DNA of 63,299 bases, counting the filler, from Rozella allomycis CSF55 (taxonomy: Eukaryota), in NCBI GenBank assembly GCA_000442015.1. It is 7 parts of 7 records of this genome, joined end to end, with 100 filler letters (N's around TTAATTAATTAA, not from the genome) between each part and the next. Parts side by side here need not be neighbours in the genome. Positions count along the whole stretch, not along the records: positions 44,079 to 48,091 come from KE561050.1; 6 more parts are not named here. The stretch is one strand, 5' to 3'. Under the pieces are notes generated by a model. The model saw only the letters and a list, made by a program, of their open reading frames with translations, had not been told where the DNA came from and did not search any database. This document shows, piece after piece, positions 10,008-57,153 of this stretch (positions are counted from its first letter, which is position 1; each line of letters starts with the position of its first letter). The translations under genes were made by a program, and so were the position numbers.

Positions 10008-11716
10008 ATGAGTAAACATATAGTGATAGTCGGCGGTGTAGCCGGTGGCGCCACCTGCGCAGCGCGCCTTCGCCGATTAAGTGAACAAACCAGAATAACC
10101 ATATTCGAAAAGGGCCCATTCGTTTCATTCGCCAACTGCGGCCTTCCATACTTTATTGGCAACATCATTGAAAAGGAAGACAGCTTGCTGCTAGCGAAAC
10201 CGCAGCTCTTTAAAGAGAGATTCAACATCGATGTTCATGTGAACCACCAGGTCGTGGGCATTGATAGAGCAAAGAAGGTTGTTTTGGTGAAGANAGGTTG
10301 TGGGCATTGATAGAGCAAAGAAGGTTGTTTTGGTGAAGAGCCAGGGGAGTGGCGATGTGCAGCATGTGAGCTATGATTACTTGGTGCTTTCTCCGGGTGC
10401 GGCGCCGGTAAAGCCTGTGGTGGCGGGGATGGATCTACCTGGGGATCTTTGTACTGCGTAATGTGCCGGATAGCAAGCAGATCAAGGAATGGATTCAGAG
10501 TAGAAGTGTGAAATCTGCGGTTATTATTGGAGGTGGTTTCGTGGGCCTTGAAATGGCTGAAAATCTGGTTCATTTGGGAATCAAGGTGTCTATATTGCAG
10601 AACACGAATCAAGTCATGAATCCGTTTGACTATGAAATCGTGTCGCCGTTGCACGATGTTATTAAAGAGCATGGAGTAGAATTAAGGCTTGGAACGACTT
10701 TTACTGGATTTGAACAGAATGGATCCAAAGTTAAAGTTCTTACTAAAGATAGTCAATCGCTTGAAGCTGATATTGTTATTCTTGCTATTGGTGTTAGACC
10801 GGATGTTGAAATCGCAAAGCAGGCTGGACTGGAAATTGGCTCGTTTGGCGGGATCAGAACGAATGAAAAGATGCAGACATCGGATCCTTCAATTTACGCT
10901 GTTGGTGATTGCATAGAAACTAAAGATTTTCAGACAAGAGAATGGACAAACATTCCACTTGCAGGGCCCGCTAATCGTCAAGGTAGAATAGCAGCTGACG
11001 CTATCATGGGGCGTGACGTGGCATACAAGGGCGTTCTCGGCACTGCTATATGCAAAGTCTTTGAAGGAATCGTTGCATGCACAGGTTTAAGTGAGAAGAT
11101 GCTGATAAAGAAGCAAATTCGATATCAAAAGTATTACTTGTTTCCCAACCATCATGTCGGTTATTATCCTGGTGCTGAACAAATACACATGAAGATACTA
11201 TTTGACCCTGAGAATGGAAAGATTTTGGGTGCTCAAGCGTTCGGCACTGAAGGAGTTGATAAACGAATTGATATTTTAGCGGTCGCTATTCAATCAGGAA
11301 GAACAGTTCACGACTTGGAAGATATGGAATTATGCTATGCCCCGCAATTTGGTGCCGCTAAAGACCCCATTAATTTAGCAGGAATGATTGGCTCAAACTA
11401 CATGAAAAATGAACATCCTCTTTGTCATTGGAATGATAAAGAAGTAGTTGACTTAATGAATGGTAACAACAATGGAATCTTAATCGACGTGCGAAGCAAC
11501 GCAGAGTACGAAGATGGACACGCCCCCAATGCAGTCAATATCCCTCTTCCTGAATTGAGACTCAAGCTGGAAGGATTGTCTAAAGATAAACCCTTATATG
11601 TTTACTGTAGAGTTGGACAAAGAGGGTACTACGCTACTAGACTTTTATTACTCAATGGCTTCATTGTGAAAAATGTCAGTGGAGGCTTCTTGGCTTATGA
11701 ATCATCAAATAAATGA
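10008..11716 (+). CDS. Bacterial-type CoA-disulfide/persulfide reductase (FAD-dependent pyridine nucleotide-disulfide oxidoreductase) fused to a C-terminal rhodanese domain; intronless
   Basis: GGVAGGATCAARLRR, SFANCGLPY (redox Cys), GGGFVGLEMAENL, AVGD, LAGPANRQGR, YAPQF, and rhodanese DVR..EY..GH..YCRVGQRG. The apparent break is the duplicated overlap at N10294. Confidence 0.9.
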
Positions 11717-15259: not shown

Positions 15260-16278
15260 ATGCAGGACATTGGTAATGGAGCAATTATAGAACATCCCGT
15301 TGACAATTATAAATTCTATGTCAAATTATGGAGAGTATAGTATATTAGGAAAGAAAATAGGCAGAGAAGCCGATTGCTGGAGTTCTTTTCATCCATGGGT
15401 TGGGTGAACACATTGAAAGATTCAATGATATGTTTAATGAGTTTCGATCAAATGATATTTCAGTATTAGGATTTGATCTAAGAGGGCATGGACGAAGTGA
15501 ATCAAAAGATGGCTCAAAAATGTATGGCCATTTGGCACAACCCTCAAAAAGCATTCGTGACTCTATACAGAGTGATGTGTCATTTTTTATGGACCTCTTG
15601 TCTAAACATGTCGTAGATGTCCCATACTTTCTCATGGGACATTCACTTGGAGGAGAAATTGCTTCATATTATGTTCTTGACAGTCCTGGCTTCAATCATC
15701 ATGTGATTCTTTCAGGTAATATTTAAAGACTGAGTTGATAGCTCCAAATATTGAACCAGGAGTACCGGTTCCAATCTTTAAAAAGGTCTTTGGAAGGTTA
15801 AGTGCACCGTTACTTCCAAATTTTTGTATAACTAATGAAATCGGTATTTTTGATTTAATTTATACAATGATCCAAGTTTAACATCAAGAGATGAAGCCTC
15901 AGTGGAAAGATATAGACAAGATCCATTGATTCATCCTTATGTTACTTTAATGAGTGGTAATTTTTTATAGTCAATGTTAGTTGCAAAGTTTGGTTTGGAT
16001 GGCGGGCAAGAATTGATAACATTAGCAAAGTCATTCAAAGCGAAATCTCTTCTAGTAACTCATGGGACAGATGACAAGATAACTTCTCCAAGTGCTTCTA
16101 AAATGTTTTATGATGGGTGCAGTGAAATAGAAGACAAAGAGTACAAATCATTCCCTGGTTATTATCATGAATGTAAATTGAATCAATTATATGAATAGTG
16201 CACTTTGATTTGGGGAAGGAAGAAGTGATCGCATTTTACATTAACTGGATAAAGAAACACGCGTCTATCAATGGCTAA
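15260..16278 (+). CDS. Alpha/beta hydrolase, monoglyceride lipase / lysophospholipase (Yju3/MGLL-like)
   Basis: HGLGEH, FDLRGHGRS, GHSLGG, DPSLTSRD..YRQDPL, HGTDDKIT, YHE|LH. Five introns; 15844-15869 ends in ATG. Confidence 0.9.
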
Positions 16279-19832: not shown

Positions 19833-20767
19833 ATGATTATACTGAAGAGTTCATTCACATTTCTAAAAGTTCCCATGATTCGTATTCCATTTATGAGATA
19901 CAGTGATATATCTGTTTTGCCGCCTGATAAGCTATCTTCAACTTCAGTGCTAACTAAAGGGTCAGCGTTTGCGAGAAACCCTAAAGCCAATGAACTCCTC
20001 CACTTTATGGACGATACCCTTCATAAATTAGCGATTCAACATAAAGTTACTGTGCTTCCTCCAAACGAGAAAAACTTGCGAGACATGTGGAAAAGCGCAA
20101 AAGGAATTGGAGAATTGCTGGGTGTAGAGATAGGTAACTATAATTCTATTAATTTAAAAAGCAAATCCAACTTATATATCAATCGTAAAGAGACTTAATC
20201 AACTGGCACATTTTATGCATGTTAAAGATGTTAATGAATTTCTAATGCATTTCACAAGAGCTCAATTTATTACTAATGATAAATTGAAACAAGATGTTCA
20301 AATTTTTAAGGGTGAAAATGGCAAATGGTTTGCGGTGGCCAAAGGCGGTCGAAAAAGTTGTAAGGCAGAAGTTACGATAGTTGAAAATGGAACCGGAGAA
20401 GTTTTAATTAACGGAATAGACGCAAGAGAAGTTGTCCAAGATTTTAAGTATTGGTATGATATAGCTAAACCGTTCATTGTAACTGGAACTATTAATAAGT
20501 ATAATGTATCTGCGCAGATAGAAGGTAGATTTTTTCGAATGCTTTAAATAAAGGTGGTGGACTTCGAGGTAAAAGCGGTGCAATCACAAATGGTATCAGT
20601 AAAGCTTTGGCCATCTTAAGGCCAGAATTTCAGACAATACTTTACCAAAGTAACAATCGCTTTATGTTAAAAAAGGTGGATTATTGATTAGAGATCCTAG
20701 AATGAAGGAAAGAAAGAAACCAGGTCAACCAGGAGCAAGAAAGAAATTCAAGTGGGTCAAACGTTAA
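19833..20767 (+). CDS. MRPS9: Mitochondrial ribosomal protein uS9m
   Basis: [24 protein letters not shown], and [26 protein letters not shown]-terminus; three GT-AG introns. Confidence 0.92.
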
Positions 20768-26182: not shown

Positions 26183-27263
26183 ATGCGTCCTATTACTTTA
26201 CATGGACATACACGTCCACTAACACAAGTCAAGTACAATAGAGAAGGCGATCTGTTATTTTCAGCGTCAAAAGATTTTGTACCGAATGTTTATTACTCTC
26301 ATAACGGTGAGCGTCTAGGTTCTTTTCACGGTCATCGTGGTGCTGTTCGTTCCATTTCAATTTCATGTAAATAAATCAAAAAAAATTAAGAAAGCGAATT
26401 CAGAAAGATTACTTACAGGTGCTGCTGATAACTTGTCAATAATCTTTCAAGTCGAAACGGGAAAACTATTAGCGAAATTCGAATGTTTAAGTCCGGTTGT
26501 TGCAGTTTCTTTTAGTATGGGGGATAAAGAAGCCTTTGTATTAACAGAAAACGTGATGTCTGAAAATTCTATTCTGCATGTTTTTGATGTAACTAAAGAT
26601 TCGTTTGAGTTGAAATACAAAAAGATTATTGAAACCAATTCAAAGCCTACCAATGCAATTTATGGTTATTTAAATAAAACTATTATCATTACATTCGAAG
26701 ACGGAAGTATTGCATTGTATGATGCAAAGGTATAGCTATTACGTAGTCACTATAAAGACGTTAGAAAAGATTGCTGAAACTAAGGATCATGAAAAAGCAA
26801 TCACTGATATTGAAATGTCCAAGGATTATACTCATTTTATTACGTCTTCTAAAGATGCTACCGCTAGGGTTTACGATCCCAGAAATTTAACGCTAATTAA
26901 GACTCTTCAAGCTGATAGACCACTAAATTCTGTTTCACTTTCAGCTATGAGGCCAGAAGTAAGTTTTATAATCAACAATTATAGGTTATCTTGGGAGGAG
27001 GTCAGGAAGCAAGTGAAGTGACAACTTCTGATGCCAAGGCTGGAAAGTTTGACGTTCTATTCTTTCATAAGATTTATGAAGATGAATTAGGAAAAATTGG
27101 TGGTCATTTTGGTCCCGTGAACACTTTAAGATATCATCCAAACGGCATTGGGTATCATTATTTATTTTGCCAATATAGATTTACTTCTGGTAGTGAAGAC
27201 GGAACAGTAAAAATTCACCACTTCGATCCTGACTATTTTTCATTTGCATATCCTGATCAATAA
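26183..27263 (+). CDS. TIF34: Translation initiation factor eIF3 subunit i (WD40)
   Basis: [53 protein letters not shown]; four GT-AG introns. Confidence 0.95.
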
Positions 27264-27358: not shown

Positions 27359-27458
27359 NNNNNNNNNNNNNNNNNNNNNNNNNNNNNNNNNNNNNNNNNN
27401 NNTTAATTAATTAANNNNNNNNNNNNNNNNNNNNNNNNNNNNNNNNNNNNNNNNNNNN
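27359..27458. other. Artificial contig spacer (N44-TTAATTAATTAA-N44)
   Basis: The same 100-nt linker with stops in all six frames recurs at 39038-39137, 43979-44078, 48092-48191, 51006-51105 and 57054-57153. Sequence across it is not contiguous. Confidence 0.97.
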
Positions 27459-28919: not shown

Positions 28920-31900
28920 TCNTTAATCCATGCCGTCAATATAGGTAAAAGGCTGCTAAGTTCCGATCCCAGATGGCAGCTTAATGTTGGATTTATAGTT
29001 TTTTGTCCCAGACATATTGGATAAAAAGCAATTGTCTTATCACAAATCACGACGTTACGGCAAGCAGAATCCATTAGGAAAATCATATAATATGCTGACC
29101 TAAGGTGTCGATTTATCTTACGACGCATCTACTACTTATCTTGTTCCAAAGTCTTTAAGATTGAGTGCAAATTAAAAACTAAATGAATTTAAAAATCTGC
29201 AGGCAATATGTGTTGATATGGGCTCTCCTACGCTATTTATCACATTAACATCTAACGCATGTGGCTGGCCAGAAATAAAGCAATATATAAGTGTGTTAAA
29301 TGGAGGTTATATAATTTTGGTTATCTGTAAAGATTACGACTATACAAAAATGAATCCATATAGTTTCCCTGCAGTCATCGCAAGAGTGTTTGACAGACGC
29401 CTGTCCTACCTTAAGGAAACATATTTAAATAAGGTATTGGGGAAACAATGTAATGGTATTGTATGGCACTATACCTCAATTGAAGCGTCGAAAACTGGTC
29501 GTCTGCATGCACATATGCTGATAAAGACAAATGACAGCATTGAAACGTTAATACATAAAGGTAACAATTAATTATGGCGGCCATAGATTAAATTCAAAGT
29601 ACATTACCGTCTCATAATGAACCTATGCTACGCTTACTTGTAGAAAGACATCAGCTTCACATCTGGACGGACTATTGTAGTCCAGACAATAACAAATGCC
29701 GGTTCAATTTGCCACGCCCACTTTGCAAGGAAACCCAATACAGAATCGCAGACAATATGGTTGTTTACAAAACTATTACAGAGCAAGACAAACGTTGTGT
29801 TCCATACATAAAGTAATTGACCTTGTTTTGGGAGGGTATGTATGATGATAGTTATATATAGGAAATATATGTGTAGAATATATTCCCCCAATAGTGATGT
29901 ATTAAAATACATCACAAAATACACAACAAAGCCTATGGATGGCTTTGTGAAGATTGATAATCAATTATCATCGGACACAANGACGCAGACAATATGGTAG
30001 TTTACCAAACTGTTACAGAGCAAGACAAACGTTGTGGTGCTTACATAAAGGAATGGACCTTGTTTTGGGAGGGTATGTATGATGATAGTTATATATAGGA
30101 AATATNTAACCGATACATTACAAAGACTTAACAAGCGTGACAAAATCAAAACATTGATCAACCCAACAATGCGTCCTTAAAAACCTCATTCAATCTAGTT
30201 GTGCACCGAACGTCGGACAGAGCGGGTAAGTCTCAATGTGTTTATCAATGTTTTACCACTTCATGTCATACGCGAAATCGTCTTCAAGGCTCCTCATAAT
30301 TTCCATGATGTTGTCGCAATCGCAGGACACCTGCGAAGTTTTTGAATTGCTGATGACATTATTGTCGTGAGCGAAAATCCCGAGGAACATTTGATGCATT
30401 TACAGTTGGTATTTCCNCACAATAAAACATTATTTGGAGGGGAAAATCATTCCGTCTACATTGGCCGCGTATATGATTTTAGGTAACGACTTAATTATCA
30501 TATTACAAAGGTCACCAGCTTGTCCGGTCATCCCATAAAACAGTATTTTTGCCATCAGGCATTCCTGACGCTATGGACCTTATGCTAAAAAGCCCATCAA
30601 TGCTGTATTCTGCTAACGAAGANTTGACAACAACGAGCACAATTTCAAAAATGACATCAGAAACTTTTCTTTAGACCTTATAAGAAAATACCTTCTTCGT
30701 AATACCTCATTGCTGCCCCTAACTTTACCAGAATTTTATCGCCCTTATANGTAGTATAGCAAAACGTTTAATAAACAAAGTGCACGTTTTGAGAACATAT
30801 TGGTTGTCACCATTGCAAGGAGAAAATTATTATTGTCAACAACTTATGTGGAAANACTTGTCGCCTTCGTTTTGATAACGACGGCTCTTAATTTCATAAT
30901 TATTTTTTTGTGTTTAAAGCATTCAAGAATATCACCGAACATATTGCGGCGTATTAGCCTACAACTTTTGATATCTTTTCTCTCTTATTGTTAGCGCAGC
31001 GATCCTTAGACAACTACACTTTTGGCATGATTATAATTTCAGTTGCACGTGGGAGAGTAGACGTCAGCATATACCGCAAAAATGTAGCAACACTATGTCT
31101 CAAAAAGGCCAGCCTTTCAACGCATTAAACAAATCATCCAAAACTAGTGTTTTATGTGACAATTACTTTTCATCCTGTTCATTCCAAATCTCTGTGGCTT
31201 CAAAAAGGACAAAAATTGGCTTCTCTGAGACACAAGCTATACAGTCTGGATTTGGTTTGATCTGACCCTATTTTCTATATGAAGCCCTTTTTGGGTTTAA
31301 TATTCATCATGTCTAAATCAAAGATAAAAATGCTTTATGTGGCAAAAAACTTGAGTAAGCATTGTCTGCCCATAGTGAAACTTTAGCCCTATCAATAACG
31401 TTACTGTAGATCATAGTGTATCACACAGTAACTCACTGGCACGTTAAAAACTTACCCTTTTTTGGAGACAAGGAGGCATGCAGAAAGTAAATTCCCGAGN
31501 CTTTTTTCTTTATTTTTTACATCCAAACAAAATTATGGCCTGGAAATAGTATTCTATACATGTGAATTATAATGTCATCTTTTGAACGCAAGGTTAGAAC
31601 TCCAAATTGCAGTCAAGGACACAAATATCATTTCGGGATCTACATTTNACATTGACGATAACGAGATATATTGGCAGGAACTCGCTGATCTTCTGGGCAT
31701 CTCATGCTTAATACTCAATTTGACTAATAAAAAGAGATTAGATACAATGACTTTAAGACATACTTATATCTTTATTTTTTACATCGAGACAAAATTATGC
31801 CCTGGAAATAATAATCTTTACATGCAAATTATAATGTCATATTTTGGCCGCAAGGTTAGTTTGCTAAAATTCATATTGCAGTCAAGGACACAAATATCAT

Positions 31901-32957: not shown

Positions 32958-34739
32958 TTACATCCAAACAAAATTATGCCCTGGAAACAGTATTCTATAC
33001 ATGTGAATTATAATGTCATCTTTTGGGCGCAAGGTTAGTTTGCCAAACTCCAAATTGCAGTCAAGGACACAAATATCATTTCGGGATCTACATCTAGACA
33101 ACGCCACTAGTAGCTGACCCGGTTCAAACAAATTAACTAGATATAAATTTACTTTTGGTAGATTTAGACCCATTGATTTATGGATTGTCATGAATGTGCA
33201 AACCATAATTGGAAATTGAATTCTATAATGACCTGAATGAGAGACGGTTTTCATTAGTCTTGTAACGTTTACTTTTCCTAAACCAGGAACAATGATTTGA
33301 ATTAGATCTTTGTTTAAGGTCACCACATAACCAAATATCCCATTGCGAATTGTATGATCGACATTTACTGTAAACATAACTTGTATCCCGATAGTCAATT
33401 TAAGGCAGTTTGGGAGTTGAGTAGCGGTTTGAGGCCAGTAAATATTGGACTGAGATTGTATACCATTCGGTAAGTAGTCCATTGCAAAGTAAATGTCTGA
33501 TACGATGTGCCCCCTTCGATTTTGAATATACTTGTCGTTTTCGGCCTCTACTGTTTTTTTCAAAGACGTAAGAGTAGGAGCATTTTTNATTGTATACCAT
33601 TTGGTAAGTAGTCCATTGCAAAGTAAATATCTGATACGATGTGTCCCATTCGATTTTGAATATACTTGTCATTTTCGGCCTCTACTGTTTTTTTCAAAGA
33701 CGTAAGAGTAGGAGCATTTTTAAACTTTTCGTGTTGGCACAATGTCTGTAGGGCGACCACTAGTCTATGGTCAATAGAAGCTCTAAACAGGTTGTCTTGT
33801 AACAAAGAGTAAAAATGGGCGTCATTCAAACCACGAAAGCATTTTGTTAAAAGATACGATTTAGATTGCAGAATCAATTGCTTATTGTACATTAGACATT
33901 TACCGTTGCCACTTGGGGGTCCCAGCTGACGAAAATCTCCCACCATTACTAATGGATAGCCACCAAAATATGAGGTCTTTATATCGCTTAAATCATTTAG
34001 TTTGGTATCTATACAATAAAACAATTCATAAGATAATGTTAACACCTCATCAATAATGATTACACCCTTCGTGTCGCTTCCAATACAAGGCAAGTCGTCT
34101 AAGCAGCGTAGGTTTGATATGTGTATGTCTAAGTCTCCGTATTTTCCTTGTGACATTACCCTGAATGCTTGNTTCATGTCGTTTCCAATACAAGGCAAGT
34201 CGTCTACGCTGCGTAAGTTTAAAATATGTATGTCTAAGTCTCCGTATTTTCCTTGTGACATTACCCTGAATGCTTGGTGGATTGTGTAATTACCAGCGTG
34301 ACTACCGAATGACGCATTTATAGCGGCTACACCAATTGTACTACAAACCAGATATCTCCTATTAATAGCATTAAGGGATTTGCACAGATGCCTTACCAGG
34401 TTTTGTTTTTCCCGTGCCAGGCCCTCCAAGAATAAGAAAAGTTTTTTGGTGGCTATGCAATATTTCATCAATAATATAATTGTACTCATACGTGTCCATG
34501 CTTTTGTGTTTAGAAGTAAATATGGTCCTNATAATATTAAGGGATTTGCACAGATGCCTTACCAGGTATGTTTTCCAGTGCCAGGCCCCCAAGAATAAGG
34601 AAGGTTTTTTGGTGGCCATGCAATATTTCATGTAGCATTAAGGGAATTGCACAGATGCCAGGCCCCCAAGAATAAGGAAGGTTTTTTGGTGGCTATGCAG
34701 TATTTCATTAGTAATATATTTGTGCTCATACGAGTCCAT
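32958..34739 (-). CDS. Stand-alone Pif1-family SF1B helicase (reconstructed across N-junction duplications)
   Basis: GGPGTGKT, STIGVAA, TIHQAF, IIIDEV, FGG..VMVGDFRQLGP, LTKCFR, L.IG.QVMFTVN..NG, QFP..TIHKSMG, GQLLVALSR. Confidence 0.88.
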
Positions 34740-38604: not shown

Positions 38605-39137
38605 AAGTGTAGATTGGTTTAAATAGGATATACATCATTACGTCATGGAGAACAACGGGGACCTCAAGAAAAAAATGAAACGCCTCCTGGACACAATTGC
38701 TTCAAAGAGGACAGTGAAAGTATTCATTTGTACACAGATGNTGACTTAGTTAAGGACTTTCGGGACCTTATGGAGAAGCACAGAAGCCCTCTATATTTCA
38801 AATACGAAAATATCCTGAGGAACATAGCAATCCAAAGGATCACGTTGGAGGGACTTACTCAGAAAGTATTCATGGAGTTAAGTGGATGCACCAAAAACAA
38901 GACCAAGTAATATATAGTTTCGTACAAGATTAGGACGTTATACCAAACGTCAACTAGACTGACCAAAGCTGTTGAGAGATTTGGACAACAAATTATGTTG
39001 ACAAATTTTGACTCAACAGTTTGTTTGTCTAAAAAAANNNNNNNNNNNNNNNNNNNNNNNNNNNNNNNNNNNNNNNNNNNNTTAATTAATTAANNNNNNN
39101 NNNNNNNNNNNNNNNNNNNNNNNNNNNNNNNNNNNNN

Positions 39138-40642
39138 TATCTAATAGCATCATTGTCGCAAGCACTTGGATCTACTCTAGAATCTGCAAGCAGCATTTTA
39201 ACAACTTCCACATGACCATTGGATGCAGCGTGTTGTATTGCATCGTTGTCGTAAGCACCTGGATCTACTCTAGAATCTGAAAGCAATATTTTAACAACTT
39301 CCACATAACCATTTTTAGCAGCATATCTAATACAATCATCCTCACAGGAACTTGGATCAACTCTAGAATCTTGCAGTAACATTTTAACAACCTCTACATG
39401 ACCGTTTTCGGCAGCATATCGAATAGCGCTGTTGTCATAAGCACTTGGATCTACTCTAGAATCTGAAAGCAAAATTCTAACAACTTCGATATGACGATAT
39501 CTGGCTGCATCTCGAATACACTCATTGTCGCAAACACTTGGATCTACTCTAGAATCTTGTAGCAAAATTTTAACAAATTCCACANCAGAATCTGCAAGCA
39601 AAATTTTAACAACTTCTAGATGACCATTAGATGCCGCATATCTAATTGCGCCATTGTTATTAGCACTTGGATCTACCCTAGAATCTTGCAGCAGCAATTT
39701 GACAACTTCAATGTGGCCTTTAGAGGCGGCATATTGAATAGCCACATTTTCGCCATCAAGTCGAAAATGGGAATTGTCACAAGCACTTGGGTCTACTCGA
39801 GAGTCTTGTAGCAAAATTGCAACAACTTCCACATGACCTTTAGAAGAAGCTCTTATAATAGCATCGCTGTCGCAAGCACTTGGATCCACTCTAAAATCTG
39901 CAAGCAATATTCTAACAACGTCCACATGACCATTATAGGCAGCTTGTCGAATAGCAGCATGTTCGGAGTCACTTGGATCCACTCTAGAATCTGCAAGTAA
40001 TATTTTAACAACGTCCACGTGACCAATAGAAGCAGCTCTTATAATAGCGTCGCTGTCGCAAGCACTTGGATCTACTCTAGAATCTTGAAGAAGCATTTTA
40101 ACAACTTCCACATGACCATATTCAGCAGCATATCGAATACAATGATTGTCGCAAGCACTTGGATTAACTCTAGAATCCGCAAGCAATATTTTAACAACTT
40201 CCACATGACCATTTATGCAGGCTATCCAAAGAGGTTCATTGTTTTTTACACTTGGGTCCACTCTTGAATCTCCCAACAAAAGTTTAACACATTCAGGGAC
40301 ACCATTCTGACATGCAAAGTAAAATGCATTGTTAACAGTTGCTGGAGACAAACATTTTTCTTGCAAGACATTAAGAAAATCAACCATCCTTTCACACCTT
40401 TTTCTGTTAATCAGGATTTCCATGCATTCTTTTACGGGCAATAATTTACCGCACCTATTATTGATTATCTTTTGAATAATGTATGGGCATCCCCATGAAC
40501 AACATGTTTCTGGCGCTTGATGAAGGATTGAATAAGAGCAATATGAACGAAGCCAACGGGAAGTTTTTGAGATTTGTTTTATGTCATTTAGGCTTACATG
40601 CGACAAAATTATGTGCCAAACCTCAAATGGGAAGTACGCCAT
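39138..40642 (-). CDS. F-box plus ankyrin-repeat protein (intronless; 3' end truncated)
   Basis: MAYFPFEVWHIILSHV..ISKTSRWLR F-box; about a dozen repeats of LL.DSRVDPSA.DN.AIR.AA.NGH.EVVK. Confidence 0.9.
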
Positions 40643-40860
40643 TTTTTGTGTGGCTAGCCTGAGGCTGAGATACACATGTACCTTAAATCTTATAGGGAAA
40701 GTCTAAAATTTTCTGAGATTTTTGTTTGTAGGCTGATGTGCCAAACCTCAAATGGGAAGTACGCCATTTTTTGTGTGGCTAGCCTGAGGCTGAGATACAC
40801 ATGTACCTTAAATCTTATACGGAAAGTCTAAAATTTTCTGAAATTTTTGTTTGTAGGCTG
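40611..40860. repeat. Tandem duplication (2 x 125 nt) covering the start codon and upstream region of the F-box/ankyrin gene
   Basis: 40611-40735 is nearly identical to 40736-40860, with no N between them. Confidence 0.9.
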
Positions 40861-41899: not shown

Positions 41900-43978
41900 T
41901 AGCGGGCGGGGAGTTTACGACCCGGACTTCAAAAACCAGTATTGGCATCTCGAATTAGCGCCCTTTCGATAGATTGTATTTTAAAGAAACCACATTGGAA
42001 TATTTGTTGGGAGATTTTCGAGAGTTTTGGCAACCTCCCATATTATTTTAGTTTTTAGTCCAGCAGTGATATGAAATTCAATTTGTGAATAACATGACGT
42101 ATACTATAGTGTTAATAAAGAAAGTTATAACCAGGGGGACATCCTGGACTTTATTTAGTGAAAAGTGGCTTAGTGTGACGACCAGGGTTAGCAGGACCGG
42201 GGTGGACTTTACGACACTCTGCTTTCTTCTCTTTTTTTTCAGGCTCGTGTAAAGGTTTCTGCTTGCGAATATTGAGAATTTGAGGATGCGTTCCCATGTC
42301 GACTTGCACAGTGTTGTTGCGGAGAATTGACTTGATAAGATATGGACCATTGAATCGGTTTTCAAGCTTGTTTGGATTGTTTGATTTAATAAATACCTTT
42401 TTTCCTATTTCAAATTTAAAATCTATTCTCTTATCATTTTGACGTTCAATGTCATAAGAACTCTGCTTCTTTTTCTTTTCCTGAGCAACCTTAAGGACCT
42501 TGTCTTTGTCATTAATCAATCTAGCTTCAAGCATGTGGCTGCCAAAAACCATTTCGGACGGAGAACAATTCAAGACTCGGTGTGACGTGGCGCGGATGGA
42601 CCAAGAAATTGACTGAATTAATAAATTTGTTATTGGTTGATTTGAATTCAGTCTTAATGCATTCCCTATTGTGAGATTTATTCTTTCGACTAATCCATTG
42701 CTTGAAGGTTGAAAGGCGGGAACAGTGTGATGATGGATACCGTATGATTGAAGCAATTCAGCAAACTCATTAAAAACAAATTGCTTGCCATTGTCAGAAG
42801 AAACAGTCGAAGGTCTAGGATAACGACAAAGCCATTCAAAGTCAAACTTTCTTGCTGTCTCTTGTGCTGTCAACGTTTTCAAAGGAATTCCATACTCCAT
42901 ACTATAGCTAAACATTCATTGTCAGTAACAGTATAATTTTGTTGAGCAGGATTCAGGTTTTGACTAAAGAAGTGTAATGGTCCTGTTAAAGTACCGCCCC
43001 AACGGCATAGTCACTTGCGTCACAGTAAAGATCAAACGGCTTGGAGTAATCAGGGTAAGCCAATTACGCTTCATGTAATATTTATCAAATATTTGTGTCA
43101 ATAGATTTGTCATATCATTGGTTCAGTCAAATTTGCTTCCTTTCTTGGTCATATCTTTAAAAATGGCGGTTCGCGCGCTTAAATTTGGAATCATGTTTCG
43201 ATAAAAATTACGAAATCCGAGTATTGATCTGAGTTCCTTTAAATTTCTTGCCATTGACACATTTTTGACAACATCAGTAATTCTTTCGGCGGGAGTGATA
43301 GNGGATCCATTAAGAAATTCTAAGTTTGAATGATCAGTAGATACCCTTATTTCACACCCAAAAATCATAGTTCTCATATCTTGAAGCGCCTATACTATGG
43401 CTAAACATTCCTTTTCGGTAACAGTATAATTTTGTTGAGCAGGATTCAGTTTTCGGCTAAANACTTCCTAATTTTGATCCATTAAGAAATTCTAAGTTTG
43501 AGTGATCAGTATATACCCTTGTTTCACACCCGAAAATTATAGTTCTCATACCTTGAAGTGCCCATACTATGGTAAACATTACTTTTCGGTAACAGTATAA
43601 TTTTGTTGAGCAGGATTCAGTTTTCGGCTAAAGAAGTGTAATGGGCGACCGTCGTGTTGAAGTACCGCCCCAACAGCATAATCACTTGCGTCACAGTAAT
43701 GATCAAACGGTTTGGAGTAATCAGGGTGTGCCAATTTCGCGTCATGTAAAAATTCATCAAATATTTGTTTCAATAGATTTGTCATATCGTTGTTCCAGTG
43801 AAATTTGCTTCCTTTCGTGGTCATATTGGTAAAAATGGCGGTTCGCGCGCTTAACTTGGGAATCATGTTTCGATAAAAATTGAGAGATCCTAGTATTGAT
43901 CCGAGTTCTTTCAAATTTCTTGGCATTGACACGTTTTGGACAACATCAGTAATTCTTTCGGCGGGAGTGATAGATTCG
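41900..43978 (-). mobile_element. Ty3/Gypsy LTR retrotransposon, 3' part (RT end, RNase H, integrase, PPT, start of 3' LTR), degenerate and partly duplicated
   Basis: LG..NFYRNMIP, YCDASDYAVGAVL, FFSRKL..Y.VTEKE, TDHSNL, SDNGKQF, SNGLVER, GPY. A purine tract is followed by TGTCGTA at 42216 as the LTR start; the lower bound is approximate. Confidence 0.9.
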
Positions 43979-44078
43979 NNNNNNNNNNNNNNNNNNNNNN
44001 NNNNNNNNNNNNNNNNNNNNNNTTAATTAATTAANNNNNNNNNNNNNNNNNNNNNNNNNNNNNNNNNNNNNNNNNNNN

Positions 44079-47487: not shown

Positions 47488-48091
47488 ATGAGTGTTGAGG
47501 GATACAAGCAGGTTCTGTCTAAAATTATTTCAAAGTCTGTGAATAAAAGTGTAAGGTGGAGATGGGGTGTTGAAAGGTTAGACTGGTTGCTGTTAGCAAG
47601 ACTAAAAGTTTTGAAGATATTTTGAGAATATATGAGCAAGGACAGCGGGACTTTGGAGAGAATTATGTAATTTGATTAATTGTTGGTGATATGATCCAAG
47701 AGTTGGTGGAGAAGAGTGCTGAATTGCCGAGGGATATTCGATGGCATTATATTGGAGCGATCCAGCAGAATAAAATCAAGCAATTAGTAAAAATTATGAT
47801 TTAAATTTATACATTTATCCATTGAAAACTTGTTCTGTATTCAAGCACTTGATTCGATGAAACATGCGAATTATTTGAATGATCGATTGGCGGAGCTTAA
47901 AAGGTCGTTGAGATGCTTTATACAAGTGTGCACGAGTGGTGAATCTAGTATGATTTTATGTTAATAATTAGAGGTAAAAATGGAGTAAGGCCTGAAGATT
48001 TGATGGCGTTGGTGGATCATATTGTGAATAAATGCAAAAACATTGAATTGAGGGGATTGATGACGATTGGAGCGGCTGATGGTGATCCAAG
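47488..48091 (+). CDS. PLPBP: PLP homeostasis protein YggS/PROSC (3' end truncated)
   Basis: RLVAVSKTK, FGENY|IQEL, WHYIG.IQ.NK, QVCTSGE.|K.G, GLMTIG. Four introns, two with non-AG ends. Confidence 0.93.
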
Positions 48092-48191
48092 NNNNNNNNN
48101 NNNNNNNNNNNNNNNNNNNNNNNNNNNNNNNNNNNTTAATTAATTAANNNNNNNNNNNNNNNNNNNNNNNNNNNNNNNNNNNNNNNNNNNN

Positions 48192-48678
48192 CAATTACCA
48201 TGGCAACTCCGCTTTTAGTATTACAGATTATTTCAAGAATTATAATGATCAAAAAGAGTTAACATCTTTTTCCCCAAAAGAGTTGGATTCTCGTCTTTAC
48301 TATATGACATCAATAGTATATCCTGAAATCAATGAATTGTCAAAGCGACACTGGAAGGGGGAAATTCCTTAAATCTAACAGAATTATTCATTTTCAGCCA
48401 GGAGCATATGTCATGGTCAGGGACGAATTAAGAACAAGGAAATCTGAACCTCTATATACTGGGCCATTCAAAATAATCAGAGGATACAAAGGAGGCGCTT
48501 ATGAACTTTTAGGTCCAGATGGCACCATATATACTCGTCCTCCTCATACTTTGAAATTATTCCATGGCACCCTAGTTGACGAGGATCCAAACAGCAAAGC
48601 TGTTCAAGTCGAGAAAATATTAGAACACAGACTTAATGGTGACAATACAACAGAATATTTGGTAAAGTGGAAGAAACA
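48192..48678 (+). mobile_element. Chromovirus (Gypsy) integrase C-terminus with chromodomain
   Basis: KSEPLYTGPF (GPY/F module) and VEKILEHR..EYLVKWK chromodomain. Confidence 0.85.
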
Positions 48679-49147
48679 NATTGTTTTTTCACCAAAATGC
48701 CCCGAGTTATGAGCTTCTTATAGAAGACGTCGTCTTTCATTTATAGGCGCTTCATCTTTGTTATCATGTTGTACAGACTGAATTATTTTAGATTTTGAAA
48801 ATAATTGCGACTTATTCGTTAATGATATGTCCTTAATTTTATAATTTAATTCAAATAGATTCAGAAACGAAGGTTGAATTGTATTGTTAATTTATAAAAG
48901 TCCCATCGACAATCCATACAACATACTTTTCATGAGGCGGAACGGTGTGTNAGTATCAATTAAAAAACCAAAGGAAACGCAGACTAATTCTCTTACTATT
49001 CGTGCTCAACCCTTTCCTCCAGGGCCTGTTTCATGATGCCCTGCTCCGTCAACACTTCCAATTCTGAAAATTCAAATAAAAAACTTGAGTTTCATTTCGG
49101 CTTTCTTTCTGCTCGGCTTTCATTGTGGCTTATAAAAAATATTTTTT

Positions 49148-49909: not shown

Positions 49910-50967
49910 TTATGAACTTAATATGCTGTTGCAGATAAAATCTCGTTTAACTTTCGCATATGTGTTATCTTCATTGCGTGTGACTTCCAATTGGGGTATA
50001 TCAATGTCATCATTATAATCAGGTATATCATCTAGCACCGTATCATCTTGAAACTTAATACAGAGATTTCGAAGCACAAAGCACGCTTGTACAATGCTTA
50101 CATTGCCTTCCATGCTTTTGAAATCCAATGGAAGCCTCAAAATACGCCACCGATTTTTCAATCACCAAATGCGCGTTCAATTACGTTACGAGTGGCTGAG
50201 TGTATGTAGTTAAATTTTTTTTGTTCCGGGGTTGCATTTTCATGATCGTAAGGAGTAATAAGATATGGTTTAAGGGCATATCCAGAATCCACTAAAATAT
50301 GATATCCTCTAGGAATTAGCGACTTTGCAATTTGACCAAAATGACTTCGATTCCAAACAGATTGATCATTCTGGCTTCCAGATCGAATACAAAATTTTTG
50401 CGAATCACAAATAGCCATAACATTAAAAGCCGGAAAATTTTTTCTACAATACCATCTATCTGGGGGAGTTGGCCTTTCAATTTCAATTAGACTACCATCG
50501 ACTGCGCCCACCACATTTGGAAATCCTTTTAACNGGGAAATCCTTTTAACTGTTCAAACCCCGAACTTAAAACTTTCCAATGATTTTCATTAGAAGGATA
50601 TTGAATATGGTCTTTTACCAATCCAGGAATTAATTTGTATATTTGATGAATGTATCTATGTGTGGTAGATTTTGAATTCCAAACATTCAAGCGACATCTT
50701 TTTCACCTCCATTTGAAGCTAAAAATGCTAAACAAACAGCGAGACGAAGAGCAATTGTTTCATCATCAAAACGAGATGTTAGAACCCTGTTTGTTTGACA
50801 AGATTCAGAATTCTTACAAAAGTTATTTTTGAACATCGTAAGTACCGTTTAAAGTATCCGTCACCTCCTGAGTCATGCAAAGCAAGTAAAAACGCCTTAT
50901 TTGCGTATGTGTATTGAAAATAGTTCTCTTCTCGATAGGAACGATTATCAGCAATAATATTATACAA
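49910..50967 (-). pseudogene. Harbinger DDE_Tnp_4 transposase
   Basis: VGAVDGSLI, CRKNF..NVMAICD, GSQND, DSGY..LITPY, FN..HS..R..IERAFG, K.RWRIL; frameshifted. Confidence 0.9.
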
Positions 50968-51105
50968 TATTATAACATAACATGTAGAAAAAATTGCAAA
51001 AAGTGNNNNNNNNNNNNNNNNNNNNNNNNNNNNNNNNNNNNNNNNNNNNTTAATTAATTAANNNNNNNNNNNNNNNNNNNNNNNNNNNNNNNNNNNNNNN
51101 NNNNN

Positions 51106-51933: not shown

Positions 51934-52996
51934 TCATGTGCCACCCTCACGGGCTCTACAGTCTTTAGTATTATGACGGATTCTGGGATTGTCCTTGTCA
52001 ACCTGACAGTAATATGTCGTTTTAACCTTTTTCGTGGGCGGACTACCGGGAGCTTTCTTCTGAGCCTCCACTCTTCTCTTAGTTGGAGATCTGCTTGCTA
52101 TGTTATTTTCCGCCAAAAGGTCTTGGATTCTTCCGATGAACTCGGGAAATGTTTTCCTGCGGTAGTAATACATTTTAAAGATTTTAGAGAACTTTTCTGA
52201 TTTCCAGTAAGGTGATAGAAAATCCTTCAACAAGTCGTTCTTCAAAGTTTCCCATGTGTATTGTGGATTCAAAGCGTTGTGTCTAGTTAGCCATTGGGCC
52301 ACAGATTCATTGTTGTGCACAAAAAGCCTGAGTAAGTGTTAAGTTTGTTCAGGAGTCAAATTGTTATCCTGGAAGATTCTTTCAAACCTTTCCAAATATT
52401 CCTCAATGTTATTGGGGTCAGAAGGTTCTAATTCTATCTTAGGATACAGTTTATGGACTGCCGAGATAATTTTTTGATCCTTCTGCCCGGAGGCCGGAAC
52501 CTGAGCGATCACAGTGGGGGTATTATGTCTTGACGCCGGAGCATCATCTAATAATTCACGACTCCTCGTGCTTTGAGTAATCTCTTCTTGGAGGGTGTTT
52601 ATGCCTCTGTCCAAGGACTCTGACGGACCCTCAGCCAGGCGAACAGCTACAAGTGCAGCTAGCTTAGTTTTCAACCTTGCCATTGATGCCTGGGGGCTCT
52701 AAACTACTTGTGAGGTGTCGATTTCGGGAGTGATATCCCCGACGTCCGCATCGTAATNAGCTAACTAATTTTTTAAACCTCCCCAATGATGCCCTGAGGC
52801 TCTCAATTACTTTTGAGGTGTCGATTTCGGGAGTGATGTCCCCGACGTCCTCATCGTAATCGATTTCATCCAAAGAGTCGGTTTCCATCGCGTCGTCCGC
52901 GATGGGTTTTACTGATTCTTTATCAGCTAGAGTGTTTGGTACTTGCTGTACCGGAACTTCGAGTGAGAAACTGTTGTTGGACATGTTGTCTTCCAT
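51934..52996 (-). mobile_element. LTR retrotransposon gag-like ORF (disrupted)
   Basis: IEEYLERFERIF, QW....TWETLKNDLL.DF capsid-like helices and a degenerate knuckle YC..D....HNTKDC; LTR-like repeat upstream. Confidence 0.65.
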
Positions 52997-54199
52997 GGTT
53001 TGNTTCCATTGTTTGTTTATGGTACCCTGGCTAATATCACTAGGGCTTATAAGTGATTTGGAAATTCGGAAATTCCTCTGCCGGTAACCTTATTAAAGTA
53101 ATTTCTCTTATTTGTCCAATTCTCTTCTTCAATCAAAAAGATGTCGCTCCATGCGCTTATAGTATCTTAATCCTCATAAATTGGATAGTACATCAAAAGA
53201 TAAAAGAGTAAAACTGATGTCGATTGAGAACGGTTTATCCTCCGTTCTATTCATTGGTATCTCCTTAGAGTTTTATATGTTTGGTCCTTTCTATAATTAG
53301 TATCAGAATAGAGATCCGTCAGGATTAAGAGATCCTTTGAGAATTATGACTCCTCTCTTTGATAATTATTCTAAGATTTGTGGGATGAGAGGCTAACAAC
53401 AAATTTACCCCGGGTGTGCCACACCCCTTGTAGAAAGCCGGGACCTTATTGGTTGAATTCTTGTCACGGTAGTGTCACGTCATTGTTACAGAGGCTTGGC
53501 GGGGAAGGTATAAATAGATATAAGGAGCTGTAATTTCGATAAAGGGGAATATATTTGAAAATAAAAAAAAATATATATTAAAAGTCTTAAATACAATTGA
53601 TGTTTTTGTTCTGAATATCGACCATCATCAGTTCAAGTTGCAGTGGATCGTCCGAAATCCGTTAATCCATTTCCATTACCCTCAAATCAAGAAATTTCCT
53701 TGTGTGCAAGCATGTTGAATATTGGCCTTCTACTATTTAAGTGATGTTTACAACATTAGCAAACAAACATGACATCAATGGCACAACCATACTGATACCG
53801 TGTTGGTAAACAGGAACTTGACTGGGTGACAAACATATTTGTTTCACTAGGTCTATCATCGGGAGTTGACTACATGTTAAAATTAGCAAAAAACATGAAG
53901 GTCTCAAAGTGTTTTATTACCTAGTTGAAGATCTAAAAGCACTATCTCATTGTGATACCTATGGACTTTAAAATTAAATCTATTTGGATAAACATCACTA
54001 TATAAGGGGAAACATTAATTATCTTAAAATATTTTTATGCCATGTTTCAGAAAATCATTGAAGGAATCTTTTTGCTAATGTGAAAGTTAGCTTTATTATG
54101 GTATACCACATCGATGTCGATATTTGTCAATTCTTTCAAAGATTATAAAGAGATTACGGTTAGGGCCGGCAGTCCAAGTACCAAGACAACGACATATCA

Positions 54200-55288
54200 A
54201 AAGAAAGACAATTCATCCATCAGATGTAAGACACAGCAACATTATGGTTGGCAAAGCTATTGCTGAGGCAGTAAGAACCGGTTTAGGTCCTAGAGGAATG
54301 GAAACGATGATCCAAAAATGATTGTTGAGGTTGGTGACGACGACATCACTGAACTTTAAAGTGGTGTCTCAGTTGGCGCCTATCGCTGTAGATGCAGTTT
54401 GAAGGTGATTGATCCTAAGACAGCGAATAATGTCGATTTGAAGGATATAAGATGTGTTCAAAAGTTGGGAGAGACTATTGATGATAAAGAGTTAATTAAT
54501 GGACTTATAATGACTCAAACAGTGACCAAGTCAGGCAATAAGTCAACTGGAACGGATAAGGCAAAGATTAGATTAATTCAATTTCAGCTGTCACCAGATA
54601 TGGACAATACAATTATTTTTTATGATTATCGCCAAATGGATAGTATTTTGAAAGAAGAAAGAAAATATCTCTTTGATATTTGCAAACAATATGTGGCTGC
54701 AGCGTTCTTTTGATACACAAAAGTATTTTGCGTGATTCAGTCACTGATCTCCATTTACATTTTCATTCTAAATTTTTCTAAAACTACTGGATGCAATCAA
54801 TTGCTGATATTGATTCATTCAATGAAGATAAACTTGGCTACGCTGATCCTATAGAAGAACTTCATGAACATGGATCTAGAATCGTGAAATTGACTGGATT
54901 AAAGAATCAAAACACTGTTATTCTATTTAATTCTCTTTCAAACAGTTTCTGTTTTAATTTGAGAAGAAGCGGAACGTTAGTCTAGTTAAGAATAGAGCAT
55001 TTGAAAAAAACAAACAAGGGAGATCAATTCTTATGTGCACACAATGTATGGCTAAGCTGATATAATGCGTGATAGAAAGGCGTGACGTGTATTGGATCTT
55101 CAAGATATTTGAAGAATCTTTTTCGAACTGGATATGCGTTGTCAATTGAGAAGACAGATAATTTTGAAGAAGAGTCATTTTTAGCTCTATTTTTAATAAG
55201 TAGGATATAAATGCAAAGATAGGGTTACACTACAGAATCGGCCACAGAAACTATTGCCAAAATTGACAACATTGTTCAAGCTCGTTAA
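54200..55288 (+). pseudogene. CCT4: CCT/TRiC delta subunit pseudogene with deletions, stops and frameshifts
   Basis: [79 protein letters not shown]. Confidence 0.85.
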
Positions 55289-55529: not shown

Positions 55530-56450
55530 TCAAAATGTCCCATACACATTTTTTTTCGAATTTTCACTAGAAAAGCTTCCACATAAAGATCTGATGGGTT
55601 GGGTGGAAGGTCTTGCTTCTAACCATATCATTTGCCAAATTAACTTGTTAAATATATCATTCTGAAATGGCAGATCTACAACTGGTAAAGGATTTAATAA
55701 TTCTTTACACTCTCGATCTACCAATTTTCACATTAAACTCTTCTAAATGCAAATCATTAATTTTTTTTAAATATATCAACATTTTTTATTGATTAATTAA
55801 ATTTTCAGAATTGATCAAGGCTATGACCTGGTTCTCCAACAAATTTCTTTTGAAAGCTTCATGAATATAGTACAAAATTCGTTTTCCACGAAGTTTGATG
55901 GAATCTTCCGTTTCAAGAAGAAACAAGTACAATGCCCGTGAGTTAGGAGTTTCTGGGAAGAATGTAGACCAAATTCTTTTTGAAAAGATTCGCAATCAAA
56001 AAATCTATGAAGCACTGTTTCATCTTTAACTTGACATTTTGAGCACATTGCAGAAACATCACTAAACCTTGCGAATCTTTTATTAGTTAAATATACTCCA
56101 TGATAAATTTTCCATAATAACTGAGAGTAATACCAATTGGTCCCACTTCCCCAAATTCCTTCCCAGATTTTTCTTGAAGTGATATATTAATTTCTTGCAT
56201 TGAATGAGGAGTTTCACTTTCATGAACTAATAGTGATTTCATCAATCCTGAATTCTTCATTAGCATTCTCCTGGAATTTCTTAAATGAAATTCATTATAT
56301 CTTAGATATTTGAAGTAACATAATTATCATTTGAATTGAATAGAAGTGTAGAACATTAATAAAAGTATGATCTAAATATCCAGAAGAAAAGAATCTAAGA
56401 TTTCCTCTTGGATTGACCAAGAGGAAATATAATATTGATGAGTATAACAT
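55530..56450 (-). mobile_element. Non-LTR retrotransposon (L1/Tx1-like) 3' remnant with zf-RVT
   Basis: IWEGIW..LLWKIYHG..CSKC..ETVLHRFFDC..IW CCHC motif; frameshifted. Confidence 0.75.
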
Positions 56451-57153
56451 GTTTGTTTTTTTGGATTTTGAGTTGAAAAATTATTTTAATAATTAAGTTG
56501 TTATTATAAAAACTAGAAATAGGATTTGTTTTTCGAATAGGCATGAATCATGCTTCGAAATGTTGACGACAAAAAATATTCTAAGTCGAAAGATATTTTT
56601 AGACAATGGTATAAGCCTCGCAACTGCACATACAAAATGACGTGACATGTGACATTTTGGCGCAGCCCAGCATCCCCCAATCATACTTCTTCATTATCCC
56701 GACAAGTTATGCCAGGGGTGAAGCACACCCCGTGTGTAAATATTTCTACCCGGGATGAGAATCCCTGGTACGACACATATTTCATGAAAACAATTAATGA
56801 ATTTATTTATATGTGTCACAACTGTAAAGTGCAGGAGCGAAAAATATATTCATTGACATCTGCAATTAATTTTTTTGATAATGGTTTGCAGTGGATTTGC
56901 ACAAAGTGTTTGGTATTAAAGTTGAGAAGGATAGGTGGACACCTGTAGTAAGGTCACAACTGATAAGTTCAGGCGCAAAAAAAATATATTAATCCACATG
57001 TGCAATGAATGTTCCTGATGGTGGTTTGCGGTGGATTTGTAAAAAGTGTTTGGNNNNNNNNNNNNNNNNNNNNNNNNNNNNNNNNNNNNNNNNNNNNTTA
57101 ATTAATTAANNNNNNNNNNNNNNNNNNNNNNNNNNNNNNNNNNNNNNNNNNNN

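Follow-up and report, generated by a model that had tools for sequence, protein, structure and literature searches.

The window analysed here is a stretch of 63,299 nucleotides from Rozella allomycis CSF55, a fungal parasite that stands near the microsporidia. It is broken up by six linkers, each built as N44-TTAATTAATTAA-N44 (27359-27458, 39038-39137, 43979-44078, 48092-48191, 51006-51105 and 57054-57153), and thus consists of separate contigs joined in a row; any gene that lies at a linker is therefore cut, and there is no physical linkage between neighbours on either side of one. Mobile or repeat segments are found at 29176-29568, 33563-34558, 39138-40702, 42154-42915, 48193-48709, 50161-50553 and 51937-52338, and their content comprises Helitron_like_N, a PIF1 helicase, a 521-aa ankyrin array, an rve integrase, an integrase tail with a chromodomain, a DDE_Tnp_4 transposase and a retrotransposon gag. 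Fragments of a TCP-1/CCT chaperonin lie at 54091-54985 on the plus strand, where one ORF covers PF00118 positions 150-249 and about 100 profile positions are absent between adjoining ORFs; this is probably a decayed copy, and a zf-RVT (LINE-like) ORF is present at 55824-56186. The gene under study here, a member of the PLPBP/YggS family, occupies 47488-48091 on the plus strand of the contig at 44079-48091 and is itself truncated by the contig end. Its neighbour on this contig, encoded on the minus strand, is an AP-2 alpha adaptin that is 100% identical to a Rozella allomycis CSF55 protein.

The PLPBP gene has four introns that start with GT, of 26, 27, 28 and 26 nt, all on the plus strand like the exons that they separate. 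Exon 1 (47488-47550, MSVEGYKQVLSKIISKSVNKS) provides an ATG with an open frame, the start codon being a predicted one. Intron 1 (47551-47576, 26 nt, GTAAGG..GAAAG) is canonical and unites frames that are open for 108 and 32 codons on its two sides. Exon 2 (47577-47666, VRLVAVSKTK..GQRDFGENY) contains the VSK lysine motif and is aligned to yeast residues 43-71. Intron 2 (47667-47693, 27 nt, GTAATTTG..GATATG) is of the form GT..TG, and reading through it keeps the frame and meets an in-frame TGA at 47673-47675. Exon 3 (47694-47786, IQELVEKSAELPRDIRWHYIGAIQQNKIKQL) begins with IQELVEK and ends with ..KQL. For intron 3 the best fit is 47787-47814 (28 nt, GTAAAAAT..ATACAT), of the form GT..AT; read-through meets a TAA at 47802-47804 and would in addition require a change of frame, since exon 4 (47815-47947, LSIENLFCIQALDS..CTSGES) is in a frame different from the read-through of exon 3. 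Intron 4 (47948-47973, 26 nt, GTATGA..TTAGAG) is again canonical, and exon 5 (47974-48091, ..KNGVRPEDL..ELRGLMTIGAADGDP) stops at the contig end at 48091, where the reading ends after residue 165; a complete PLPBP/YggS protein is a single domain of about 220-260 residues. The 497 exon nucleotides contain neither a stop nor a frameshift, and the probability that the 83 codons of exons 4 and 5 would stay open by chance is about 0.006. Introns 2 and 3 thus have the GT 5' end of U2-type introns (GTAATT and GTAAAA), but their ends are TG (47692-47693) and AT (47813-47814) instead of AG.

The assignment to the PLPBP/YggS family, made on homology, is sound, as the original prediction had it. The product of exons 2-3 retrieved yeast YBL036C (PDB 1ct5/1b54) as the top PDB match with an E value of 3.5e-12, E. 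coli YggS with 5e-7 and PipY with 1.2e-5, and the spliced model with introns of 27 and 28 nt reaches 178.5 bits on a profile made from 120 YggS proteins. A database search with the same two exons gave 7384 matches at E<=0.001, the best 120 of which are bacterial or metagenomic YggS proteins that carry PF01168. Those with names among the best 120 belong to Bacteroidota/Chitinophagaceae and show 61-69% identity; for the spliced model, the JGI protein P0018 shows 56% identity over 145 residues, whereas the three distinct homologues that follow it reach 44-47%. Scored by parts, the YggS profile gives 60.2 bits for exons 1-2, 53.3 for exon 3, 15.4 for exon 4 alone and 41.3 for exons 4-5, and exon 5 alone matches Pfam PF01168 with an E value of 7.3e-4 and 19.7 bits, under the cut-off of 24.1. 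AVSKTK pairs with VVSKLK of yeast, and FGENY/IQE, read across intron 2, with FGENYVQE; we take the lysine of the VSK motif to be the PLP-binding one and FGENYxQE to be a family motif. No second PLPBP-like piece was found in the window by tblastn with the 120 YggS proteins, for which this locus is the sole match.

Homology also places the junctions. When yeast PLPBP is aligned to the read-through of intron 2, with X at the stop, the gap is exactly 9 residues, between FGENYV and QELIEK, and GENYVQE is uninterrupted in 120 of 120 homologues. Both observations bear out the proposal that removal of 47667-47693 gives FGENY/IQEL. For intron 3, yeast residue 101 is matched by the last residue of exon 3 and yeast residue 104 by the I at 47821, and because of these two pairings exon 4 must start at 47815 for the yeast alignment to be gapless. 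We scored alternative spliced models on the profile built from the 120 best matches to exons 2-3. The model with 27 nt for intron 2 and 28 nt for intron 3 reached 178.5 bits, and lengthening intron 2 to 36 nt, where an in-frame AG is available, lowered the score to 161.4. Intron 3 lengths of 25, 31 and 34 nt gave 176.5, 178.2 and 183.3 bits, respectively. The bacterial loop is shorter at this site, and the profile therefore does not settle where exactly intron 3 ends. The position 47814, put forward originally as the best fit, is thus the one supported by the gapless yeast alignment, while the profile also allows 47817 and 47820; none of the three candidate ends is an AG. Taking out the 27-nt and 28-nt segments restores the conserved frame, and in length and composition both segments match the introns of the organism.

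Mechanisms other than splicing were considered for the two segments and set aside. DNA excision of the ciliate type, bounded by TA, would have to operate in a fungus and at cuts that are unambiguous, and a 31-nt TA-TA cut suits intron 3 only. For ribosomal hopping there is a TTA..TTA pair at intron 3, but the TAT pair at intron 2 is out of frame, and we know of no precedent in the eukaryotic cytosol. Reading TGA as a sense codon would still require the frame change at intron 3, and A-to-I editing would create AG from AA, whereas the ends are TG and AT.

A scan of the sequence found no AG within 47667-47693 or within 47787-47814, and no G at all in 47800-47823. Downstream of intron 2, an AG pair at 47699-47702 on the plus strand, in the layout of a TG-AG tandem, offers ends at 47700 (34 nt, frameshift) and at 47702 (36 nt, in frame, with loss of IQE). 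Past the donor at 47787, the nearest AG has its end at 47845, giving an intron of 59 nt that is out of frame, as had been proposed together with the TAA met on retention; the second ends at 47895, giving 109 nt, in frame. An in-frame path that uses GT..AG introns only therefore exists, with introns of 36 and 109 nt and at the cost of 3 plus 27 conserved residues, and the original statement that one of the introns has no workable AG at all does not stand in that form. Canonical splicing along this path, to 47702 and 47895, would yield a shortened protein without IQE and without 27 residues of exon 4. The path is open, still scores 135.0 bits, and has TGAT-like branch candidates, located by eye, 9 and 14 nt ahead of the AG at 47702. 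Its score is, however, 43.5 bits below that of the best-fit model; it drops the conserved ..ENLFCIQALDS.., which is still a clean open frame, its 109-nt intron is 3.5 times as long as the longest of 41 canonical introns in the window (31 nt), and in both introns an out-of-frame AG (47700 and 47845) precedes the in-frame one. We consider this outcome very unlikely.

The canonical introns used for this comparison come from a survey of the window in which genes were identified by Pfam and introns by chaining and frame inspection. The survey was non-exhaustive and covered 44 introns, of which 41 are GT..AG; 34 of these are in genes identified by Pfam and 7 come from coding-potential chaining alone. 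The canonical introns measure 18-31 nt, with 40 of the 41 in the range of 24-31 nt and a mode of 26 nt. They start with GTA in 37 of 41 cases and have A at +4 in 30 of 41, and at position -3 they carry T in 26, A in 10, G in 3 and C in 2. PLPBP introns 2 and 3, with GTAA starts and AT contents of 0.74 and 0.89 (mean of 0.72), match this pattern in all but their last two bases. Each non-AG end is moreover one mutation away from a canonical one, the ends ..TTACAG and ..TGATAG being present among the 41. The shortest intron seen is an apparent 18-nt GT..AG intron, GTGAGGGAGTAGGTATAG, in a P4-ATPase (flippase) gene at 4403-4386 on the minus strand, where read-through meets TGA; in the alignment rows Drs2 structures align to the P4-ATPase exon as far as ..YVDFG, and the downstream TLLPLVF presumably fits P4-ATPase sequence. 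About 20 further 'introns' produced by a length-maximising GT-AG chainer were judged to be artefacts on frame inspection (e.g. 10458-10500, 15876-15970, 26233-26318, 20676-20700 and 7553-7534), some of them crossing conserved coding sequence.

A third candidate for a non-AG end was seen in a Hydrolase_4/monoglyceride-lipase-like gene at 15844-15876 on the plus strand. From its GT donor at 15844 the sole AG (15875-15876) defines an intron of 33 nt that leaves the frame wrong, whereas an intron of 26 nt would end with ..ACAATG, similar to the ..GATATG of PLPBP intron 2. This case would be explained equally well by a one-base error, an extra A in the A run ahead of the donor, combined with a canonical 33-nt intron. 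Relaxed acceptors had been suggested, with PLPBP as the strongest single-gene case. Since 41 of the 44 introns examined are GT..AG, and the 15844 candidate may be a homopolymer error, a general relaxation of the acceptor in the organism is not demonstrated, and the occurrence of two non-AG ends among the four introns of one gene points to a gene-specific cause or to lesions. A gene finder based on codon log-odds that admitted GT..NN introns (0.11 nats per codon) called 0 non-AG ends among 23 introns; it missed PLPBP and so gives no evidence either way.

The bases at the two intron ends were compared with contigs from the X4 sequencing run. All 30 bins across the PLPBP gene are covered by X4, with word depths of about 170-290, and no 1-nt insertion or deletion in the gene is reported in it. 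The X4 contig record 9 (47702-47877, depth 94) shows 0 differences from the window, T at 47814 included, and because of this exact match the T is no assembly error. X4 possibly shares its source with the assembly, but k-mer depths of about 90-190 provide read-level support regardless. There are 49 X4 variant places, of which 38 are given by position and 11 by kind alone (two A>G, one A>T, one C>A, two G>A, two T>C and three T>G). The sole T>A among the 49 is at 47969, and therefore no X4 contig has AG at 47692-47693.

These data also bear on whether the genome in fact carries AG at each of the two ends and the window is in error. The assembly is indeed poor: 7 of its 38 single Ns are inside tandem duplications, a G4 run near 10441 interrupts a gene, and X4 departs from the window at 46841, where it lacks 26 nt, and at 47912. 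An artefact at both ends is nevertheless highly improbable, given that over intron 3 an X4 contig of depth 94 agrees with the window base for base and that X4 has neither an indel nor a T>A at 47692, with a bin depth of 251 that accounts for all haplotypes. On the read check proposed originally, which asked whether the reads show AG, record 9 has T at 47814 and no X4 contig has AG at 47692-47693; a second X4 contig, record 10, for which 7 of 10 differences are placed directly, may have G at 47814.

Several irregularities of the assembly were recorded along the way. The single Ns at 10294, 13475, 13791, 18833, 46866, 50534 and 53003 have near-identical tandem copies of 12-45 nt on both sides, which look like haplotype overlaps put head to tail by the assembler and which repeat codons within genes, e.g. 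VVGIDRAKK twice near 10294. The G4 run, at about 10438-10444 on the plus strand, breaks the frame of a Pyr_redox_2/rhodanese gene between ..GMDLPG and IFVLRNVPD.. and is either a homopolymer error or a true frameshift. At 47912 all X4 contigs have T (166.5 of 166.5) against G in the window, changing R to I in ..RSL[R/I]CFIQV..; in this buried-strand-like stretch the change may reflect either a wrong base in the window or variation between strains. Finally, to judge from bin depths of 29.9 and 42.4, no X4 contig covers 47182-47399 between adaptin and PLPBP, where the haplotypes may be too divergent or rearranged, a matter irrelevant to the introns.

Record 10, with a depth of 83.5 about equal to that of record 9, differs from the window at 10 places in 47702-47877. 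Because each of the two X4 arms differs from the window at 47939-48082, the window is a haplotype mosaic, and Rozella allomycis is described as non-haploid, 'triploid', in PMC6784888. Seven of the 10 differences of record 10 are placed directly, and bubble geometry puts an eighth at the four-fold degenerate site 47847; by the same k-mer bubble geometry, the two others must be in 47806-47846. The 4 haplotype differences in exon 3 (47732, 47738, 47762 and 47765) are all synonymous. Three differences fall inside intron 3 (47796, 47804 and 47805) and one inside intron 4 (47969), and those of exon 5 are synonymous at 47987 and 48008 and conservative at 48024 (V>L) and 48052 (R>K). Over the exon sites with complete variant lists (S = 58.3, N = 235.7) there are 6 synonymous and 2 non-synonymous differences. 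The resulting pN/pS of 0.08 (binomial P of 0.0012, or 0.0018 with the two unplaced differences taken as non-synonymous) between haplotypes means that the exons have been under purifying selection. 3' of intron 3 alone the ratio of synonymous to non-synonymous differences is 2:2, or 3:2 with 47847, and is without significance, and the selection signal may be older than the acceptor changes. Variants occur at 4 of 45 intron sites and at 8 of 294 exon sites (P of 0.06). A protein search for ORFs of the second haplotype across exon 3 and intron 3 (42-aa query, targets of 23-74 aa) gave no candidate, and an exact 30-mer scan of metagenome contigs for this haplotype gave 0 matches.

The selection signal has to be weighed against the possibility that the gene is a young pseudogene, lost recently in all its copies in a parasite that sheds genes, with splice acceptors hit first. 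Two independent hits on essential splice signals of one gene are what such a loss could leave behind. By standard rules both introns would lead to frameshifted or truncated mRNA, and no annotated protein of at least 124 aa that includes exons 2-3 is present among the best 120 of the 7384 matches. The lesions are confined to the splice signals, however: the 497 exon nucleotides are free of them, all conserved motifs are present and the score is 178.5 bits. A rough Poisson estimate puts the likelihood that neutral decay produces two acceptor hits and nothing else at about 0.001-0.03, and pN/pS is 0.08 and not neutral, though this value possibly dates from the time before the death of the gene. 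We hold a loss in all copies to be unlikely.

The presence of two haplotypes allows for a mixed case as well. Intron 2 would be spliced as a TG-AG tandem, at TG or at the in-frame AG at +9, and the AT of intron 3 would be a lesion on the haplotype of the window, sheltered by other copies of the genome that keep ..ACAG in a non-haploid, probably asexual organism. The near-equal depths over 47702-47877 (94 and 83.5), the reported ploidy and the mosaic nature of the window are all compatible with this idea, as are the TG with AGs at +7 and +9, a layout already known in the parts of the tandem literature available to us, and the two differences of record 10 inferred in 47806-47846. With three T>G among the 11 variants known by kind alone, the other haplotype may carry G at 47814. 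The neutral chance that one of two unplaced differences is a T>G exactly at 47814 is, however, a few percent, so that the idea of a null haplotype leans on the very hypothesis it is meant to support. Moreover, a pN/pS of 0.08 implies that individual haplotypes are not freely decaying, and the first AG past the TG (34 nt) causes a frameshift, and AAG is a more frequent acceptor than GAG here (10 against 3 of 41). Such a combination seems to us rather unlikely.

We tentatively favour, as possible rather than probable, the reading that both introns are still removed at their old positions despite their non-AG ends and that the gene is functional. Introns 2 and 3 would then be ordinary ultra-short spliceosomal introns of a PLPBP gene that still works in Rozella allomycis. 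The AG of intron 2 would have been lost through a change of ..GATAAG to ..GATATG, or through insertion of a T into ..GATAG, and that of intron 3 through the single change of ..ATACAG to ..ATACAT, with cutting still taking place at the old 3' position or a few bases from it. In introns of 24-31 nt the 3' site would be held at a short and nearly fixed distance from the donor and the branch region, and exon ligation at a non-AG end could thereby be possible, if probably inefficient. What the analysis shows is the DNA sequence, the junctions set by homology, the intron-like build of the two segments and purifying selection on the exons between two haplotypes; splicing at the non-AG ends and the role of distance in setting the position are what we infer. 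Both ends look like fresh single mutations, which fits lesions as well as it fits tolerated variants. At a rate of 2-3% non-AG introns, finding two among four has a probability of about 0.002-0.005, which counts against continued splicing; unless a few percent of introns are non-AG, it is equally as unlikely as decay by lesions only. The weights given here to the different explanations rest on our own rough likelihoods. A wider claim, that the Rozella spliceosome sets the 3' cut by distance and ligates constitutively at TG or AT, with a small percentage of genes, overlooked by GT-AG-only annotation, depending on AG-independent ligation, we regard as rather doubtful.

If the ends are used, these would be natural U2-type introns whose sole productive 3' site is not an AG, against the rule that the second step of splicing requires AG. 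The choice of acceptor would then be tied to the geometry of ultra-short introns in a lineage adjoining the microsporidia, and gene finders restricted to GT-AG would break or drop such genes in Rozella. If the ends are lesions, the locus would be a clean case of something ordinary, the decay of a gene in a non-haploid parasite at a very early or allele-specific stage.

Splice-site lesions occur in unitary pseudogenes and in null alleles. The Rozella gene resembles these in that each end is one base from canonical and that the organism is a reduced, non-haploid parasite, and differs from them in its intact exons and in a pN/pS of about 0.08 between haplotypes. U12-type introns have donors of the type GTATCCTT/ATATCCTT and a branch motif near the 3' end. 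Compared by eye with this consensus, the Rozella donors GTAAAAAT and GTAATTTG are unlike GTATCCTT, and in intron length and in their neighbouring introns, which are of the ordinary U2 type of the organism, they also depart from this class, which we set aside on the basis of the donors. There is some likeness in intron 3, since the only GT..AT pairing described is that of U12-type introns, which tolerate such ends according to Parada et al. 2014 (PMC4176328), where pairing of such an end with a 5' G is given as possible.

Our literature search turned up neither an earlier case of a U2-type intron with T as its last base nor a report of non-AG acceptors in Rozella; James et al. 2013 (PubMed 23932404), which was outside the search, may give transcript data. 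The nearest parallel for intron 2 is the TG-AG tandem of human genes. According to Szafranski et al. 2007 (PMC2374985), human U2-type TG 3' sites are always beside an AG no more than 28 nt away and are never the sole acceptor, and human AG>TG mutants switch to neighbouring AGs and not to the TG. Intron 2 of Rozella, GT..TG with AGs at +7 and +9, is inside this 28-nt limit and shares with the tandems described there a pyrimidine, here T, at -3 ahead of the TG and a purine, here A, as the first exon base. It differs in that the TG junction is the one demanded by homology, the nearest AG shifts the frame and the intron has only 27 nt, and intron 3, with an AT end and its nearest AG 31 nt off, is outside the class. 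For fungi, the study of Frey and Pucker 2020 (PMC7072748) reports that the 3' splice site is the more flexible one and that pairs other than GT-AG, GC-AG and AT-AC make up 0.257% of 2.3 million introns. Two adjacent introns of this kind in a four-intron Rozella gene are far above this figure, which is based on annotation and does not include Rozella.
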